Shown here: positions 25,539 through 39,398 of the stretch, piece by piece | Numbering within the stretch: the first letter of the stretch is position 1 | Layout of the letters: every line of letters starts with the position of its first letter | Notes under the pieces: model-generated | Seen by the model: the letters and a program-made list of their open reading frames with translations, nothing else | What the model was told of the DNA's origin: nothing | Database searches by the model: none | Assembly: GCA_046290465.1 (NCBI GenBank) | Contig: JBKAGP010000001.1 | Coordinates: 5,792,001-5,856,000, forward strand | DNA from: Planctomycetota bacterium | GTDB taxonomy: Bacteria > Planctomycetota > UBA1135 > UBA2386 | Reading direction: 5' to 3' | DNA: 64,000 nt | Position numbers and translations under genes: made by a program

Positions 25539-27077
25539 GTGCGCACGGATCCGAGACAGCTACACGAGCGCAAGTTCGACCTCGTCGTCGTCGGCGCCGG
25601 GATCCAGGGTGCGGCGATCGCGCGCGATGCCGCCGTGCGCGGCCTCGACGTGCTGCTGGTCGACGCCCGCGACGTCGCCGCCGGCACCAGCTCGCGCAGC
25701 AGCCGGCTGGTGCACGGCGGCCTGCGCTACCTGCGCCACGGCCACTTCGCGCTGGTCCGCGAGGCGCTGCACGAGCGCGAACGGCTGCTGCGGCTCGCCC
25801 CGCACCTGGTCCGGCCGCTGCCGATGCTGGTGCCGTTCTTCGGCGACAGCTCGGTCGGTCGCTGGCAGCTGCGGCTCGGAACCTGGCTCTACTCGCGGCT
25901 GGCCGGCCGCTCGACGCTGCCGCGGCCGGAGACCAAGACCGCGGCGCAGGCGCTGGCGGCGTTTCCGGGGCTGCGCGAGCGCGGCCTGCGGTCGGGGCTG
26001 TTGTTCTTCGACGCGCGCACCCAGGACGGCCGCCTGACGCTGGCCAACGTGCGCGACGCGGTGCGGGCCGGCGCCGTCTTCTGCAACCGGGTGCGGGCCG
26101 TCGGCTGCGACGATCGAGGCGTGCGCCTTTGCGCCGGTGGGGACGAACTCACGGTGCGCTGTGCCGAGGTCGTCAACGCGACCGGTCCGGCGGTCGACCC
26201 GCTGCGCCGCGCGCTCGGCGTCGATGGCGACGAGCTGGTGCGCACCAGCCGCGGCAGCCACGTCGTGCTGCCGCCGCGGGCCGGCGAACTGTCGCTGTGC
26301 GCGTTCCTGCCCGACCAGCGCATCCAGTTCGTGGTCCCGCACGACGGCGGCACGCTGTGCGGCACCACCGACGTCGACGACCACCTGGTGTGCGACGAGG
26401 GGCCGCCGCCCGCCGTCGACCTCGACTACCTGTGGGAGGCGCTCGGCTACCTGCTCGAGCCGCCGCCGCAGCCCGACGACGTGCGGTTCGCCTACTGCGG
26501 CTGGCGGGCGCTGCCCAACACCGAGGGACCGCCGGGGGCGCTCAATCGCGAGGGGTTCGTCGTCGGCGAGCGCATCGCCTGCGGCCGGCTGCACACCGTC
26601 GTCGGCGGCAAGCTGACGACGCATCGCTCGTTCGCCGAACGCGCGGTCGCGGCGATGTTCGGGCTCGACCCCGTCTCGCCGACGCGCGACCGGACGCTGC
26701 CCGGTGGCGACGGGCCGCGCGAGGTCGACGATCCGCTGTGGTGGCGCCACGGCAGCCTGGTGCGCGAGCTGCGCGCGCAGATCCGGATGCAGCCCGACCT
26801 CGCCGAGCCGCTCTGCCCGCACCGGCCGCTGCTGGCAGCGGAGCTGGTGCACGCGGTCGCCAACGAGGGTGCGGCTACGTTCGCCGACGCGGTCCTGCGC
26901 CGGCTGATCGACGTGCGCGGGCCGTGCGTCGAACCGGCGTGCCTGCAGCGGGCGCTCGAGGTGTTCGCGCGGGCCGGGGGCGTCGTGGATGATGCGGCTG
27001 CCGAGGTCGCTGCCGTGCACGCCGAACTGCTGCAGCTCACCGGCGACCTGGAGTCCTGGCGACGACGACAACCGTGA
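25539..27077 (+). CDS. glpD: FAD-dependent glycerol-3-phosphate dehydrogenase/oxidase
   Basis: FDLVVVGAGIQG, GTSSRSSRLVHGGLRYL, APHLVRPL, VVNATGP, RGSHVV, GTTD, GGKLTTHR. GTG start inferred. Confidence 0.9.
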   Translation: MRTDPRQLHERKFDLVVVGAGIQGAAIARDAAVRGLDVLLVDARDVAAGTSSRSSRLVHGGLRYLRHGHFALVREALHERERLLRLAPHLVRPLPMLVPFFGDSSVGRWQLRLGTWLYSRLAGRSTLPRPETKTAAQALAAFPGLRERGLRSGLLFFDARTQDGRLTLANVRDAVRAGAVFCNRVRAVGCDDRGVRLCAGGDELTVRCAEVVNATGPAVDPLRRALGVDGDELVRTSRGSHVVLPPRAGELSLCAFLPDQRIQFVVPHDGGTLCGTTDVDDHLVCDEGPPPAVDLDYLWEALGYLLEPPPQPDDVRFAYCGWRALPNTEGPPGALNREGFVVGERIACGRLHTVVGGKLTTHRSFAERAVAAMFGLDPVSPTRDRTLPGGDGPREVDDPLWWRHGSLVRELRAQIRMQPDLAEPLCPHRPLLAAELVHAVANEGAATFADAVLRRLIDVRGPCVEPACLQRALEVFARAGGVVDDAAAEVAAVHAELLQLTGDLESWRRRQP

Positions 27078-28747
27078 CCGAAACCCCGTTCTCGTTCCCC
27101 TCTTCGTGGCGCTGGCTCGACCGGCCGCCGCTGCGCCTCGACACCGGCCTGCAGGGCCACGTCGCGGTCGTGCTCTACTGGCGGGTCGGCTGCGCGCACA
27201 GCCGGGCGGCGTTGAGCGAGCTGGCGCTGGCGAGCCTGCGCGAGCGGGACCGCGCCGTCGCGTTCGTTGCGGTGCACGTGCCGGTGGAGCCGGGCGAGGA
27301 GGACGACGAGCGCGTCCGGCGCCAGCTGGCGCAGCTGCCGGCGCCGCTGGTCGCCGCCGTCGCGGCCGATGCGGACGAGGTCGACCGGCTGCCGACGATG
27401 GTGCTCGTCGATGCCGCCGGGGTCGTGCAGGCACGTGCACCGGGGGTGCCCCGTCGCCGGCGCCTTCGCGAAGCGGTCGGGGCCCTGTGCCGGCAGGCCG
27501 ACGAGTCCGGCCAGGCGGCGCTGGTGCCGTTCGTGCCGCACGAGACCGGCTCGCGCGGTGGCCTGCGCGCGATCGCGGCGGCGCACGACGGCGAACGGCT
27601 GTGGCTGGCGAGCGCCGGCCAGCGCCGCGTGCTCGCCGTCGACGGCGACGGCAACGTGACCCACAGCTTCGGGTCGGGCGCCTGGGGCAAGCAGGACGGC
27701 GACGCCGCGTCGTGCTCGTTCGCGCTGCCCGCGGCGCTGTGCGTGCACGACGGCTTCGTCGCGGTCGCCGACGCGCAGACCCACGTGCTGCGCGCGATCG
27801 ACGCCGGCAACGGCGACGTGACCACCTGGGTCGGCACCGGCCAGTTCGGGGCCGACGACGTCGGCGGCGGCTACGGTTCCGACCAGCCGCTGTGCAGCCC
27901 GGCCGGCATGGTCAGCCACGACGGCGGCCTGTACCTGTGCCAGACGGGCGTCGAGCAGCTCTGGCAGGTGGACCCGATGACCGGCGCCGCGATGGCCTGG
28001 CTCGGCGCCAACTACGGTGGCGAGGAGTTCCGCCAGCCGGTCGCGCTGGCGCAGGTGGACGACCAGCTGTGGCTGTGCGAGGCGGGCGCCGGAGCGCTGA
28101 CCTGCGTCGACCTCGCCCACGTCGAGGTCCGCGAGCGCCGCTCCGGCATGCAGCGACCCACCGGCGTCGCGGTGGTCGGGGAGCGGATCTTCGTCGCCGA
28201 CGCCGGCCGCGGCGAGGTGCTCGAACGCATCGCCGCCGAGGCGGGCTTGCGCCGCTGCTTCGGTCCGGACGACGGCCTGCGCGAGCCGGTCGCGCTCGCC
28301 AGCGACGGCGAGCGCCTGTTCGTCGTCGACGCGGCGGCCGACCGGGTGTTCGTCGCGACCGTCGGTGAGTCGTTGGGGCCGCTGCAGCCGTTCGAACTGC
28401 ACGGCCTGCCGGAGCCGGCGCGGCTGCGCAGCGGCCCGCGCGCGATGGTGGCGCGGCCATGCCACCTCGCTGAGCACAGCGACGTCACCCTGACGATCGC
28501 GCTGCCGGGCCAGGACGGCGAGACGGTGGTCGTCGACGTCGTCGACGAGGCCGACCCGGTGCTGGCGGTGCCGCGCGACACCGTGGTCGAAGTCCGCGGT
28601 GGCCGCATCGAGGTGCTGCTGCCGATCGCCGAAGGGCTGCTCGGCGCGCTGCGCATCCGCGTGCAGGTCGCCGGCCGCACGCGGCACTACGTGCTGCCGG
28701 TCACGGTCGGGACGGACGGCGCCACCGAGGCCGAACTGGTCGTCTGA
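27074..28747 (+). CDS. Thioredoxin-like + NHL-repeat beta-propeller protein (NHLRC2/SOQ1-like architecture)
   Basis: N-terminal GHVAVVLYWRVGCAHS...VAVHVP...LPTMVLVD. NHL repeats VADAQTHVLRAID, IFVADAG, LFVVDAAADRV. GTGA overlap with glpD. Confidence 0.8.
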   Translation: MTETPFSFPSSWRWLDRPPLRLDTGLQGHVAVVLYWRVGCAHSRAALSELALASLRERDRAVAFVAVHVPVEPGEEDDERVRRQLAQLPAPLVAAVAADADEVDRLPTMVLVDAAGVVQARAPGVPRRRRLREAVGALCRQADESGQAALVPFVPHETGSRGGLRAIAAAHDGERLWLASAGQRRVLAVDGDGNVTHSFGSGAWGKQDGDAASCSFALPAALCVHDGFVAVADAQTHVLRAIDAGNGDVTTWVGTGQFGADDVGGGYGSDQPLCSPAGMVSHDGGLYLCQTGVEQLWQVDPMTGAAMAWLGANYGGEEFRQPVALAQVDDQLWLCEAGAGALTCVDLAHVEVRERRSGMQRPTGVAVVGERIFVADAGRGEVLERIAAEAGLRRCFGPDDGLREPVALASDGERLFVVDAAADRVFVATVGESLGPLQPFELHGLPEPARLRSGPRAMVARPCHLAEHSDVTLTIALPGQDGETVVVDVVDEADPVLAVPRDTVVEVRGGRIEVLLPIAEGLLGALRIRVQVAGRTRHYVLPVTVGTDGATEAELVV

Positions 28748-28868: not shown

Positions 28869-29576
28869 ATGCTCGCCTTCCAGGACCCAACGAGCGGCGC
28901 GTGGCAACAGCTGCGCGACGCCTTCGACCGCACCGGCTACGACTCTGCGCTGACCCTCGCGGTCTACCTCGTCGCCGGTGGTCTGCTCGCCTTCTACGTG
29001 CGGTTGCTCTACCGCCGCACCAGCCGCAACCCGTCGGCGGACTCGGTGGCGCGGGTGTTCCCGCTGCTGACGCTGGTCACGATCGCGGTGATCTCGGTCG
29101 TCAAGGCGTCGCTGTCGCTGTCGCTCGGCCTGGTCGGGGCGCTGTCGATCGTGCGCTTCCGCGCCGCGATCAAGGACCCCGAAGAGCTGGTCTACCTGTT
29201 CTTGTGCATCGGCATCGGCCTGTCGCTCGGCGCCGCGCAGCCGTGGATCGCGATCTCGCTGGTGGTCGCCGCGACGCTGTTCGTGCTGGTGTTCGAACGG
29301 TTCGGCCGCGGCCATCAGGCCGCCGAGGCGTTCGTCACGGTGGTCGGTCCGGCCGGCCGCTTCGTCGGCGACGGACCCGACACGGCGCTCGCGGTCGTCG
29401 ACGACTTGTGCAGCGCCGTCGTCGTGCAGCGCTGCGACCTCGACGGCGACGAGGGCCAGCTGCGGGCGCAGGTCCGGGCGGCACGCGGCCTGCAGACGCA
29501 GCGGCTGATCACCGCGCTGCGGGGGCGGCTGCCCGACTGCCAGGTCTCCTACGTGGATGCGGGGGCGCTCTCGTAG
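28869..29576 (+). CDS. DUF4956-like membrane protein (VTC-associated)
   Basis: SLSLSLGLVGALSIVRFRAAIKDPEELVYLFLCIGIGL signature, several TM segments, ACT-like C-terminal domain. Confidence 0.88.
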   Translation: MLAFQDPTSGAWQQLRDAFDRTGYDSALTLAVYLVAGGLLAFYVRLLYRRTSRNPSADSVARVFPLLTLVTIAVISVVKASLSLSLGLVGALSIVRFRAAIKDPEELVYLFLCIGIGLSLGAAQPWIAISLVVAATLFVLVFERFGRGHQAAEAFVTVVGPAGRFVGDGPDTALAVVDDLCSAVVVQRCDLDGDEGQLRAQVRAARGLQTQRLITALRGRLPDCQVSYVDAGALS

Positions 29577-30298
29577 TGGTCGCGGTCACCCTGCACGACG
29601 AGGCCGCACAGCGGGCCGACCTGGCGCGTCGCGGCGAGACCAAGTACGCGTTCCGCCGCCACGACGTCGCGACCCTGCGCGCGATGTTGCGGCGGTTCGC
29701 CGATCCGATCGTCTACGCCGACCACGTCTCGACGGTGCGCAGCGCCTACTTCGACGACCTCCGCCTCGGCTCGTGCTACGCCAACCTCGACGGCCTCGGC
29801 GTGCGCAACAAGTTCCGGGTGCGCTGGTACGACCGCGAACGGCCCGACGGCGACTGCTGGTTCGAGATCAAGTGGCGCAACAGCCTCGCGACCGGCAAGC
29901 ATCGCTTCCGGATCCCCGAGGGTGCGGTGCTGGCGCGCACGCCGCTGTGGCGGTGGCCGCGGGCGCTGCGCGCGGCGGTGCCGGAGCGCTTCGGCAGGCT
30001 GCTCGAGAAGATGCAGCAAGCCGTCACGGTGGTCGAGTACCGCCGGGAGCACTTCGCGCTCGGCGACGCCCGGCTGACGCTCGACTACGACCTCCGCTTC
30101 TACCCGCTGCTCGGCTGCCGCGACCTGACGCTGCGCTTCGCCGAGCGCCTGCCTTCGTTCGCGCTGGTCGAGTGCAAGGGACCGCTCGACGGTTCCCGCC
30201 GCGAGCAACGCGTGCTGCGACCGCTCGGCGCGCGCGCGGTGCGCTTCTCCAAGTACGTGACCGCCTGCCAGCGGCTCGGCTACGCCGCCGACATCTAG
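29576..30298 (+). CDS. VTC-domain polyphosphate polymerase (CYTH/TTM fold)
   Basis: RGETKY, VRSAYFD, RNKFRVRWY, FEIKWR, VEYRREHF, RLTLD, LVECK, FSKY. The GTG start overlaps the upstream TAG. Confidence 0.88.
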   Translation: MVAVTLHDEAAQRADLARRGETKYAFRRHDVATLRAMLRRFADPIVYADHVSTVRSAYFDDLRLGSCYANLDGLGVRNKFRVRWYDRERPDGDCWFEIKWRNSLATGKHRFRIPEGAVLARTPLWRWPRALRAAVPERFGRLLEKMQQAVTVVEYRREHFALGDARLTLDYDLRFYPLLGCRDLTLRFAERLPSFALVECKGPLDGSRREQRVLRPLGARAVRFSKYVTACQRLGYAADI

Positions 30299-30315
30299 AT
30301 CCGACCTCCGACACC

Positions 30316-32712
30316 ATGAGCATCCGAACCCCCGTCCTGTTCCTGTTCGCAGCCGCATGTGCGGTGTCCGCATTGCCCGCGCAAGGGCGCCGCGGCCGGC
30401 GTGGCCCGCCACGGTCCCCGGTGTTCGAGGCGATCGACATCGACGGCGACCAGCAGGTCTCCGGCGAGGAGATGGACGAGGCGGTGCGTTCCCTGCTGAC
30501 CCTGGATCGCGACGGCGACGGCAACCTGACCACCGAAGAACTGGCGCCGCAGGGCGGCGGCCGCGGGTTCGGGGGGCCGCCGGGCATGTTCGGCATGGAC
30601 CCGCTGCTGCGGGCGCTCGACAAGGATGGCGACGGCGAACTGTTCGAGGACGAGGTCACCGACGCACCCCGGTCGCTCGACCGGCTCGACCGCGACGACG
30701 ACGACGTGCTGACGCGGGCAGAACTCGAAGGAGATCGCGACCGAGGTGGCTTCCCGGGCGGCTTCCCCGGCGGCGGGCGCGGCGGCTTCGGTCGCGGTGG
30801 TCGCGGCGACGGCGGCGGCTACGACGGAACGCCGACGCCCGAGCAGCTGCGGCCCGAAGACGGTCGCGCCACCGTGCCCGATCGCGCGACGTTCCAGGAG
30901 CTGTCGTACCAGGGCAAGGAGGTGATGATCGACACGCACCTCGCCGACCAGGAGTTCGTCAAGTTCCAGATCGAGGACGCGGCCGGCGATGCGCCGCGGC
31001 TGTACTTCATGAACACCAAGAAGCACCGCGCGCACCCGATGTTCATGCAGCTGATTGGCGTCGGTGGCCGCGGTGGCTTCGGCGGCCGCAGCGAGGGCGG
31101 CGACGTGCGCATGCGCGGCGTGCTGGTCTACCGGCCGACGCTGATGTCCCCGAGCAGCAGGCCCGGGCTCTACACGTTCGAGTTCGAACCGAACGACGCA
31201 TACGAGTACGACATGATCCGGATCGCGTTCGACCTGCTCAGCGAGAAGTCGGCCGAACTGCGCGGCAACCTGGCCTACAACCTGCTGACGCTGGCCGCGC
31301 GGCAATACGAGAAGGACAAGGCGGACTACGACCGCACGGGCCTGCCGGTGTTCCGTCCCGACGACGTCTATGGCGAGGTCGCGTTCCTGCCGCTGCACCG
31401 GGCGGAGTCATTCGGCCGGCTGCGCTTGATGCAGCAGGGCGAGCGGCCGTCGCAGCGCGACATCGTGATCTACCGCACGCTGCCCAACGAGATGCCGCGC
31501 GTCGCCGGCGTGCTGACCGCGGTCCGGCAGACGCCGCTGTCGCACGTCAACCTGCGGGCGGTCCAGGACGACGTGCCGAACGCGTTCGTGCACGGGATCG
31601 CCGACGATGCCGCCGTGCAGCGGCTGCTCGGCAAGTTCGTGCGCTACGCCGTGACCGACGGTGGCTACGAGCTGCGCGAGGCGAGCCAGCAGGAGGTCGA
31701 CGCGCACTTCGAGGCGCTGCGCCCGCAGCAAGAACAGGTGCCGCCGCGCGACCTGTCGGTGCGCGAGGTGCGGCCGTTCTCGGCGATCGGCTTCGACGAC
31801 TCGACGAGCTTCGGCGTCAAGGCGTCGAACCTCGCCACCCTGCGCACGTTCGGGTTCTCGGACGGCCGCACGCCGGACGGCTACGCGGTGCCGTTCGCGT
31901 TCTACGACGCGTTCATGAAGCACAACCGCTTCTACGAGATGGCGCGCACGATGATGGCGACGGGCGACTTCCAGCGGGATCCGGAGACGCGCGAACGCGC
32001 GCTGAAGGAGTTCCGCAAGAAGATCAAGAAGGGCGACCTGCCCAAGTGGATGGCGGATGCCCTGGCCGACGTGCAGGGCCGCTTCGCGCCGGACCAGCCG
32101 ATCCGCTGCCGATCGTCGACCAACAACGAGGACCTGCCCGGATTCAGTGGCGCCGGTCTCTACGACTCGTTCACGCACAAGCCGGACGAGGGCCACCTCG
32201 GCAAGTCGATCCGCCAGGTGTTCGCGAGCCTGTGGAACTTCCGCGCCTACGAGGAGCGTGAGTTCCACCGCATCGACCACCTGCAGGCTGCGATGGGCGT
32301 CGTGCTGCACGCCAACCAGAAGCTCGAGCAGGTCAACGGCGTCGCCGTGACCAAGGACGTGCTCTACAAGGCGCAGCATCCGGACCTGCGGCTCTACTAC
32401 GTCAACGCGCAGGTCGGCGAGGATCTGGTCACCAACCCCGATGCCGAGTCGGTGCCGGAGGAACTGCTGCTGTCGCCGCGCAACCCCCGGCGCGATCGCG
32501 TGCTGCAGCACAGCAACCGCGTCGACGGCGACGCGTCGGTGCTGTCGCAGGCGCACCGGCAGGAACTGCGGCGCTGCATGCGCCAGCTGCACGACCGCTT
32601 CGCGCGCCTTTACGGCCGCGGCGACGACCCCGACTTCGCGATGGAGATCGAGTTCAAGGTCACCCGCCACGGCGAACTGCTGATCAAGCAGGCGCGGCCG
32701 TGGATCGAGTAG
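30316..32712 (+). CDS. Exported EF-hand + phospho-His swivel + PEP/pyruvate-binding (PPDK_N ATP-grasp) domain protein
   Basis: Signal peptide. Four EF-hand loops (DIDGDQQVSGEE, DRDGDGNLTTEE, DKDGDGELFEDE, DRDDDDVLTRAE). AGVLT...TPLSHVNL swivel motif. ATP-grasp motifs FGVKASNL, RSSTNNEDLPGFSGAGLYDS, VFASLWN, EIEFK, KQARP. Confidence 0.85.
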   Translation: MSIRTPVLFLFAAACAVSALPAQGRRGRRGPPRSPVFEAIDIDGDQQVSGEEMDEAVRSLLTLDRDGDGNLTTEELAPQGGGRGFGGPPGMFGMDPLLRALDKDGDGELFEDEVTDAPRSLDRLDRDDDDVLTRAELEGDRDRGGFPGGFPGGGRGGFGRGGRGDGGGYDGTPTPEQLRPEDGRATVPDRATFQELSYQGKEVMIDTHLADQEFVKFQIEDAAGDAPRLYFMNTKKHRAHPMFMQLIGVGGRGGFGGRSEGGDVRMRGVLVYRPTLMSPSSRPGLYTFEFEPNDAYEYDMIRIAFDLLSEKSAELRGNLAYNLLTLAARQYEKDKADYDRTGLPVFRPDDVYGEVAFLPLHRAESFGRLRLMQQGERPSQRDIVIYRTLPNEMPRVAGVLTAVRQTPLSHVNLRAVQDDVPNAFVHGIADDAAVQRLLGKFVRYAVTDGGYELREASQQEVDAHFEALRPQQEQVPPRDLSVREVRPFSAIGFDDSTSFGVKASNLATLRTFGFSDGRTPDGYAVPFAFYDAFMKHNRFYEMARTMMATGDFQRDPETRERALKEFRKKIKKGDLPKWMADALADVQGRFAPDQPIRCRSSTNNEDLPGFSGAGLYDSFTHKPDEGHLGKSIRQVFASLWNFRAYEEREFHRIDHLQAAMGVVLHANQKLEQVNGVAVTKDVLYKAQHPDLRLYYVNAQVGEDLVTNPDAESVPEELLLSPRNPRRDRVLQHSNRVDGDASVLSQAHRQELRRCMRQLHDRFARLYGRGDDPDFAMEIEFKVTRHGELLIKQARPWIE

Positions 32713-37093: not shown

Positions 37094-37128
37094 GCCGCCG
37101 GCGTGGACCGGCCACGCCGGGACCCGTC

Positions 37129-37384
37129 AGCGGGCAAAGCCCCGTCCGCACGCGTACTCGCCGCTTCCGCGATCCCGGTTGGCAGCGCGTCCACTCCATG
37201 GACGCGCTCCTAGCGGGCAAAGCCCCGTCCGCACGCGTACTCGCCGCTTCCGCGATCCCGGTTGGCAGCGCGTCCACTCCATGGACGCGCTCCTAGCGGG
37301 CAAAGGCCCGTCCGCACGCGTACACGCCGCTTCCGCGATCAACGGTTGGCAGCGCGTCCACTCCATGGACGCGCTCCTAGCGGG
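37129..37384. repeat. Tandem array of three 83-84 bp REP-like units
   Basis: Units 37129-37211 and 37212-37294 are identical; 37295-37378 has a few changes. Each contains the 10-bp stem AGCGCGTCCA-ctcca-TGGACGCGCT followed by CCTAG. Confidence 0.92.
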
Positions 37385-39287: not shown

Positions 39288-39398
39288 GGCGGGGGCTATC
39301 GGTCGTAGCCGAGGACCCGGTGCAGTGGGAGTTCCGCCTAAGGAGAGCCCTCAGCGCTGGCGTCGGCCGCGAGCGGAGGTACCCTTCTCCGACCGAAG

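Follow-up and report, generated by a model that had tools for sequence, protein, structure and literature searches.

A predicted exported His-swivel/ATP-grasp enzyme in the place of CotH beside VTC and DUF4956 genes of a Planctomycetota bacterium

In a stretch of 64,000 nucleotides (hereafter the window) from the genome of a Planctomycetota bacterium (assembly GCA_046290465.1, contig JBKAGP010000001.1, forward-strand positions 5,792,001 to 5,856,000), three consecutive genes encode a DUF4956 membrane protein, a VTC-domain protein resembling the yeast polyphosphate (polyP) polymerase Vtc4, and a predicted exported enzyme in which a phosphohistidine (pHis) swivel precedes an ATP-grasp domain. 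A trio of cotH, polymerase and DUF4956 genes is already known, and unexplained; the replacement of the secreted kinase CotH by a His-swivel enzyme is well supported. The features are listed below, numbered from the first letter of the window; PEP stands for phosphoenolpyruvate and RPH for rifampin phosphotransferase.

28869..29576, + strand: DUF4956 membrane protein, 235 residues (Pfam, invariant residues, model, fold matches, hydropathy).
29576..30298, + strand: VTC-domain protein (Vtc4-like triphosphate tunnel), 240 residues, soluble, without a membrane helix; candidate polyP polymerase (Pfam, profile, invariant residues).
30316..32712, + strand: predicted exported His-swivel/ATP-grasp phosphotransferase, 798 residues, in the order possible acceptor domain, pHis domain, ATP-grasp (Pfam, model, conservation).
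30316..30381, + strand: predicted Sec signal peptide, residues 1-22, with cleavage probably before Gln23 (sequence by eye, hydropathy, similar leaders in relatives).
30436..30723, + strand: four EF-hand-like loops, residues 41-136, set between linkers rich in Gly, Arg and Pro; some family members lack them.
30829..31383, + strand: conserved alpha/beta domain, residues about 172-356; candidate acceptor-binding domain (conservation).
31384..31695, + strand: pHis swivel, residues about 357-460, with His410 at 31543-31545 (matches to 2e28, 5woy and 2fm4; weak match to GWD1_pHisD).
31756..32709, + strand: ATP-grasp domain of PEP-synthase/RPH type, residues 481-798, with K502, R599, S618, E779, Q792 and R794 conserved (Pfam PPDK_N; fold match to 5hv1; alignment to 5hv6).

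Coordinates and Pfam matches confirm the tight three-gene operon described in an earlier note on this DNA. The GTG start of the VTC gene (Pfam VTC, E=2.2e-19, 70.4 bits against a cut-off of 23) shares one base with the TAG of the upstream DUF4956 gene (Pfam DUF4956, E=1.5e-14), and the ATG of the third gene, which matches PPDK_N over residues 498-795 (E=3.1e-24), follows the VTC gene after a gap of 17 nt. DUF4956, VTC and PPDK_N pass their Pfam cut-offs; the EF-hands fall below theirs. Third-codon-position GC is 0.92-0.95 for all three genes, which is normal for real genes in this genome. A promoter scan of the region returned no sigma-70 site, and terminators were uninformative. The host genome, a single contig of 6.59 Mb, holds one VTC gene, one copy of the third gene and PPK1, with no match to PPK2; at 94% completeness, it also gave no match to CotH, either with Pfam or with our own profile.

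The linkage of the third gene to VTC and DUF4956 recurs in other genomes. Among the best 80 of 603 confirmed loci of the enzyme in GTDB, 21 adjoin VTC/DUF4956, in the orders DUF4956-VTC-enzyme (9, including cultured Stieleria marina, L023), VTC-DUF4956-enzyme (7), enzyme-VTC-DUF4956 (4) and enzyme-DUF4956-HlyD-TolC-VTC (1); in the other 20, VTC and DUF4956 lie directly beside the enzyme gene. These loci come from Planctomycetota (Pirellulaceae and S. marina among them) and Acidobacteriota, with a single record each from Proteobacteria and Deferribacteres. Apart from these partners, the linked lineages have no neighbour in common, whether a conserved fourth gene or one for a substrate; the genes were called by a rough procedure that overlooked some known ones. 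A metagenome scan with a single VTC sequence returned only six loci, three of which extend to a downstream enzyme gene. The locus with HlyD and TolC (L075:8863-18492) begins with an enzyme gene that carries a tail of type IX secretion system (T9SS) type and is split in two frames, followed by DUF4956, a HlyD+DUF6929 fusion, TolC and VTC; two lamin-tail-domain proteins come after VTC.

The VTC proteins found beside the enzyme do not form a single lineage. In a quick tree of 81 VTC rows, the enzyme-linked sequences are scattered among CotH-linked ones and the enzyme label needs five changes, and a single enzyme-linked clade was rejected by the approximately unbiased (AU) test (p-AU 3.3e-10) on 36 rows picked after the first tree, with the group defined by neighbourhood; at least three separate VTC lineages adjoin the enzyme. 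Of 81 genomes from an acidobacterial order, 10 contain VTC; judged by coordinates, six of these VTC genes adjoin the enzyme (three of the loci are already in the linkage set), and the other four adjoin CotH (one broken). Presence and absence were also recorded in 50 of the 79 genomes behind the 80 loci: VTC occurs in 37 and CotH in 44, and in all six genomes that lack CotH, VTC adjoins the enzyme. The median number of CotH copies is 1 in the 19 linked and 10 in the 18 unlinked VTC-bearing genomes, a comparison among kin that are not independent, so that its p-values overstate the difference. The linkage in 21 of 80 loci in four orders, the scattered VTC lineages, the either/or pattern in 10 of 10 acidobacterial cases and the absence of a CotH match in the host together make an exchange of CotH and the enzyme well supported. 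The earlier note had placed the enzyme in an interchangeable kinase slot and had proposed a comparison of CotH with PPDK_N-type partners in such neighbourhoods; that comparison bears the proposal out.

CotH is nevertheless the usual occupant. Of 121 genomes in the host's class, 77 have VTC, 81 CotH, 69 both and 32 neither, and four have the enzyme; at 38 VTC loci picked from that class, DUF4956 is present at all 38, CotH at 27 (one weak) and the enzyme at one, together with CotH. Both partner types stand at a single locus in L186:4287-11834, where CotH-VTC-DUF4956 converges on an enzyme gene. In L225:7889-8953 a broken VTC continues in frame into a CotH end, and in L228:12162-16586 a gene with the dikinase module is interrupted by a stop. 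Poribacteria-type genomes (L144, L145, L170-L176) have no VTC, and in them the gene that immediately follows DUF4956 is CotH or an SdiA-regulated/phytase-like one. Accessory cotH, polyphosphate-polymerase and DUF4956 genes have been noted at Gram-positive pel loci, without a mechanism in the passages concerned (10.1101/768473), and the trio of Streptococcus intermedius (SIR_1592-1594) has been knocked out, again without a mechanism in the relevant passages (PMC12345266). The operon described here resembles that trio in packing VTC-domain and DUF4956/MgtC-like genes with a secreted phosphotransferase; it differs in its Planctomycetota host without CotH, in the unrelated His-swivel/ATP-grasp enzyme that fills the slot, and in that no pel genes were seen beside it.

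Upstream of the operon lies a gene with weak propeller-type matches (27074-28747, + strand) and downstream a convergent amidohydrolase gene, nagA-like by reading (32720-about 33907, - strand). Close relatives, including those that lack DUF4956-VTC here, retain both next to the enzyme gene; other lineages do not. Between them, DUF4956-VTC is kept in the host and in L004, L005 and L007, with one VTC each, and is missing in L006 and L008, which have four and three VTCs elsewhere. This distribution is what would be expected if any copy serves in trans. Farther along the window, short repeats at about 37100-37340 and 39290-39340, noticed solely through peptides that recur when the DNA is translated off frame, bracket a chemotaxis-receptor-like gene.

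The enzyme itself belongs to a large family whose members appear to act outside the cytoplasm. A search gave 3732 matches among 8000 candidates scored, and there are 932 representatives at E<=1e-30; the weaker matches will include ordinary PEP synthases. Most of 29 relatives scanned (26 representatives, mostly picked for length, and three others from the same lists) bear fn3, cadherin, Calx-beta, LRR, FlgD or T9SS-tail domains, which suggests that export is a trait of the family. Judged by a rough hydrophobicity criterion, applied with no control, 79 of the 80 loci have a signal-like start; the start called in L011 is clearly wrong, and the N-terminus of L066 is truncated. The export of the third protein, which the earlier note had also predicted, is therefore supported at the level of sequence across the family. 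Among the relatives are giant secreted proteins (P0124, P0125, P0133 and P0144) that contain two copies of the dikinase module or join it to a sulfatase or a sugar dehydrogenase propeller. In a literature search, with subscription journals mostly outside its reach, none of the papers listed deals with a secreted family of His-swivel dikinases or with its link to VTC.

Fold matches and conservation recover the EF-hands, swivel and ATP-grasp domain of the earlier note, and add a domain that it had omitted. In an AlphaFold model of the enzyme (predicted local distance difference test, pLDDT, 88; predicted template modelling score, pTM, 0.83), residues 357-460 match 2e28 (Z 10.7, root-mean-square deviation, rmsd, 2.2, 93 aligned) and the carrier domain of PPDK, 2fm4 (Z 8.4), and residues 481-798 match RPH, 5hv1 (Z 27.5, rmsd 2.6, 290 aligned). 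The codon at 31543-31545 is CAC, as the earlier note had it, and His410 is invariant in 67 aligned relatives; by analogy with the chemistry of the family, this residue would relay the phosphate. K502, R599 and S618 align with K22, R117 and T136 of RPH, which are described as ATP-site residues in the part of the RPH study that treats them (PMC4844700), and E779 is equated with RPH E297 by motif only; across 245 modules, conservation of each of the four is 99% or higher. The additional domain, residues about 172-356, has near-invariant K216, N233 and H240 (245 modules; 42 rows). It gave no Pfam or PDB sequence match by profile, its Atlas leads were all below 0.9, and the top 120 among the matches listed for its profile are its own family or short pieces thereof. 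The EF-hand-like loops, which begin at residues 41, 64, 102 and 125, are missing from four of the 21 linked members (L019, L023, L068 and L075) and are also present on 8 of 43 CotH frames, and therefore look like an optional leader rather than a defining Ca2+ switch; the proposed calcium regulation is weakened accordingly and was rejected as a defining trait.

Known relatives offer only partial precedents for this architecture. In the alpha-glucan and phosphoglucan water dikinases (GWD), the pHis domain is followed by a C-terminal ATP-grasp domain. The enzyme shares this order (GWD1_pHisD, PF22973, with PPDK_N; Atlas clusters with both domains, 0.90-0.92) and differs in having a signal peptide and EF loops, no carbohydrate-binding module (CBM), and an acceptor domain unrelated by sequence. 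Its match to GWD1_pHisD is weak (E=0.021, 14.8 bits against a cut-off of 27), and the same weak match occurs in 8 of 20 relatives, in all cases below the Pfam cut-off. Annotation as a true GWD was rejected on this sub-threshold match and on the lack of a CBM in the Pfam scan. With RPH and PEP synthase (5hv1, 2ols) the enzyme shares the ATP-grasp fold, the nucleotide-site residues and the swivel His, whereas its domains are permuted, it is predicted to be exported, and it has no pyruvate barrel or rifampin-binding domain. Annotation as a PEP synthase or RPH was likewise rejected: the NCBIfam matches cover the ATP-grasp domain only and fall well short of their cut-offs (64 against 598 bits, and 50 against 999).

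The VTC protein keeps the Vtc4 catalytic residues and is a candidate polyP polymerase, as had been supposed. A 34-row VTC profile compared with the PDB matched solely Vtc4, Vtc2 and Vtc3 (best 7.5e-27), and R19, K23, R81, R83, K99, K108, R110, R157, E199, K201 and K226 are invariant in the 34 rows. On the 8i6v_E alignment, counted by hand, R81, R83, E199 and K226 (each 34/34) correspond to Vtc4 R264, R266, E426 and K458, whose roles are taken from passages of PMC9911596 and PMC4641920. Phosphatases of the triphosphate tunnel metalloenzyme (TTM) family have four acidic residues at positions that are basic in Vtc4, according to a passage of the latter (PMC4641920). At these acidic-patch positions, matched to AtTTM3 E2/E4/E90/E171 by motif and not by an AtTTM3 alignment, R19, K108 and K201 are basic as in Vtc4, and position 21, Thr in Vtc4, is E (28) or D (6) in all 34 bacterial VTCs. 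With three positions basic and one acidic, the bacterial protein appears closer to the polymerase without being identical to it. Compared with yeast VTC (Vtc4 3g3q; complexes 7ytj and 8i6v), it shares the catalytic residues of the tunnel, lacks the SPX domain and the fused membrane part, and stands as a soluble enzyme beside a small membrane protein; its role as a polymerase is predicted from its sequence.

That membrane protein is modelled (pLDDT 86) with four predicted membrane helices at about residues 26-146, also indicated by hydropathy, and a C-terminal ACT-like domain (151-235). Its fold matches are to ACT, 1zpv (Z 9.8), and to the C-domain of MgtC, 2lqj (Z 8.7). VTC membrane subunits, whose Vtc1-type channel has three helices, are not among the fold matches listed, a weak absence in that the matches mostly cover 151-235; profile comparison of DUF4956 with VTC likewise gave no match. 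MgtC thus shares with DUF4956 a membrane domain followed by an ACT-like C-domain, whereas DUF4956 stays below the Pfam MgtC cut-off (E=0.009, 16.7 bits against 31.4) and is linked to VTC and secreted kinases. Across 36 aligned rows, its only invariant basic residues are R96 and R98. A complex prediction with three DUF4956 and VTC scored 0.29, against a mark of 0.32, and is given no weight either way.

Since VTC/DUF4956 is accompanied by one or the other of two unrelated phosphotransferase folds, both secreted, the pair is likely to provide something that each of them needs, and the DUF4956 protein, the VTC protein and the enzyme are very probably coupled in function. What passes between them is a more tentative matter. 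The account that we prefer, at somewhat less than an even chance, is that DUF4956 and VTC constitute an inner-membrane module that feeds a phosphoryl donor, probably polyP, to the secreted kinase of the cell in question, be it CotH or the unrelated His-swivel enzyme. At the cytoplasmic face of the membrane, VTC would build polyP from ATP; DUF4956 would carry either this polymer or some other donor outward; and the exported enzyme, after loading His410 at its ATP-grasp domain, would transfer the phosphate to a glycan or protein of the envelope that residues 172-356 bind as acceptor. PolyP synthesis, polyP export, the donor and the acceptor are each steps that we infer. HlyD-type adaptors offer a hint of export: all six likely-adaptor downstream genes scanned, among 16 VTC loci without enzyme or CotH, are of this type, and HlyD with TolC in some VTC/DUF4956 loci suggests outward transport. 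In L157, L159, L200, L205, L208 and L212 the HlyD-type gene directly follows VTC-DUF4956, with no kinase nearby. In a wider version, VTC/DUF4956 would make and export polyP as a general extracytoplasmic phosphoryl supply on which both CotH and the His-swivel dikinases, a large family so far undescribed, draw; the dikinase would take phosphate from polyP, directly or via ATP rebuilt from AMP, for surface glycans or proteins. This version is possible, with the odds clearly against it.

A number of observations weigh against a polyP supply, and the competing explanations draw on them. In 59 of the 80 loci, some on short contigs, no VTC/DUF4956 lies in the flank of the enzyme gene; 13 of the 50 enzyme-bearing genomes gave no VTC match; and five Poribacteria, three of them chromosome-level, gave none when retested with our own VTC profile. 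Poribacteria have CotH and DUF4956 besides the enzyme, and the five have PPK2 and no PPK1 over its cut-off. VTC as an obligate partner was accordingly rejected. Two genomes of the acidobacterial order have distant, adhesin-type members of the enzyme family and no VTC, and a genome of the host's own genus has the enzyme unlinked, with a single VTC that accompanies a divergent CotH. The unlinked loci, that of this last genome included, and the rarity of the enzyme in the host's class (four of 121 genomes) would suit a neighbourhood arising by chance or through loose clustering of envelope-related genes. A linkage that takes four gene orders, spans several phyla and involves three or more distinct lineages of VTC, the either/or pattern, and the failure of any other neighbour to recur make this very improbable. 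Seven of the 13 VTC-less genomes have a strong DUF4956 match, which adjoins CotH in five, and so DUF4956 rather than VTC is the more constant partner of secreted enzymes. DUF4956 could in that case be the core of the system and bring ATP, rather than polyP, to the secreted kinases, with VTC as an optional helper. VTC nonetheless stands beside DUF4956 at most loci seen, with a full Vtc4-like active site, DUF4956 has only its two invariant basic residues, and we know of no ATP carrier of the DUF4956 fold. The ATP site of the enzyme looks intact, with the ATP-binding residues of RPH and PEP synthase kept, which tells against the earlier note's proposal that the enzyme uses polyP; CotH of Bacillus subtilis uses ATP in vitro in the portion of that work concerned (10.1101/469122); and loss of either the DUF4956-type gene or cotH of S. 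intermedius cut aggregation in sputum medium by more than half, with no such drop reported for the VTC gene in the section on these mutants (PMC12345266 section 20). Delivery of ATP accommodates all three of these points, and we nevertheless consider it rather unlikely.

The same section reports that the DUF4956-type and cotH knockouts shifted Pel in opposite directions, and the knockout pattern as a whole implies no simple linear pathway. The layout of DUF4956, membrane domain plus ACT, looks like that of MgtC and not Vtc1, which weakens the earlier suggestion of polyP export through it, and MgtC is described, in the part of PMC6658541 concerned, as acting by binding PhoR and not as a channel. 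Position 21 of VTC, E/D instead of Thr, means that its chemistry may differ from that of Vtc4. The MgtC-like layout, the way in which MgtC acts, the opposite Pel shifts and the intact ATP site are consistent with regulation: an MgtC-like DUF4956 adaptor would sense what the secreted kinase produces, or how active it is, and control a cytoplasmic VTC, whether the latter makes polyP, hydrolyses inorganic triphosphate (PPPi) or produces a nucleotide messenger, and the enzyme would use whatever ATP reaches the envelope. Regulation is a rather unlikely account; it leaves the source of ATP unexplained, does not account for HlyD/TolC genes inside some cassettes, and sits poorly with genomes that have tens of CotH genes and one VTC, where a shared supply fits better than one-to-one sensing. 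A flow in the opposite direction can also be imagined, in which the enzyme takes phosphate from nucleotides or polyP outside the cell by way of a labile phosphohistidine, DUF4956 helps to bring it in, and VTC locks it up inside as polyP. RPH mutants retain ATP pyrophosphatase activity (PMC4844700, in the passage on those mutants), MgtC indirectly promotes phosphate uptake (PMC6658541, in part), and in one scanned Poribacteria genome the VTC-less DUF4956 adjoins an SdiA-regulated/phytase-like propeller gene. Scavenging of this kind is improbable, however: the usual partner, CotH, acts as a protein kinase in vitro (10.1101/469122, in part), the conserved extra domain of the enzyme suggests a real acceptor, HlyD/TolC suggests outward flow, and the host has PPK1 for storage.

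The preferred account, that of a membrane module supplying a phosphoryl donor, addresses the open question of how secreted kinases obtain a phosphoryl donor outside the cell; the source of ATP for CotH is called unanswered in a passage of the B. subtilis work (10.1101/469122). A 2026 preprint describes, in the sections concerned, extracellular polyP made without PPK, in an organism with no VTC4 homologue (PMC13484657). Of the versions that this study met, the three-gene form is the smallest that is self-contained, and its host has a single VTC and lacks CotH. As a proposal, the preferred account points to a way in which bacteria may power phosphorylation outside the cytoplasm.

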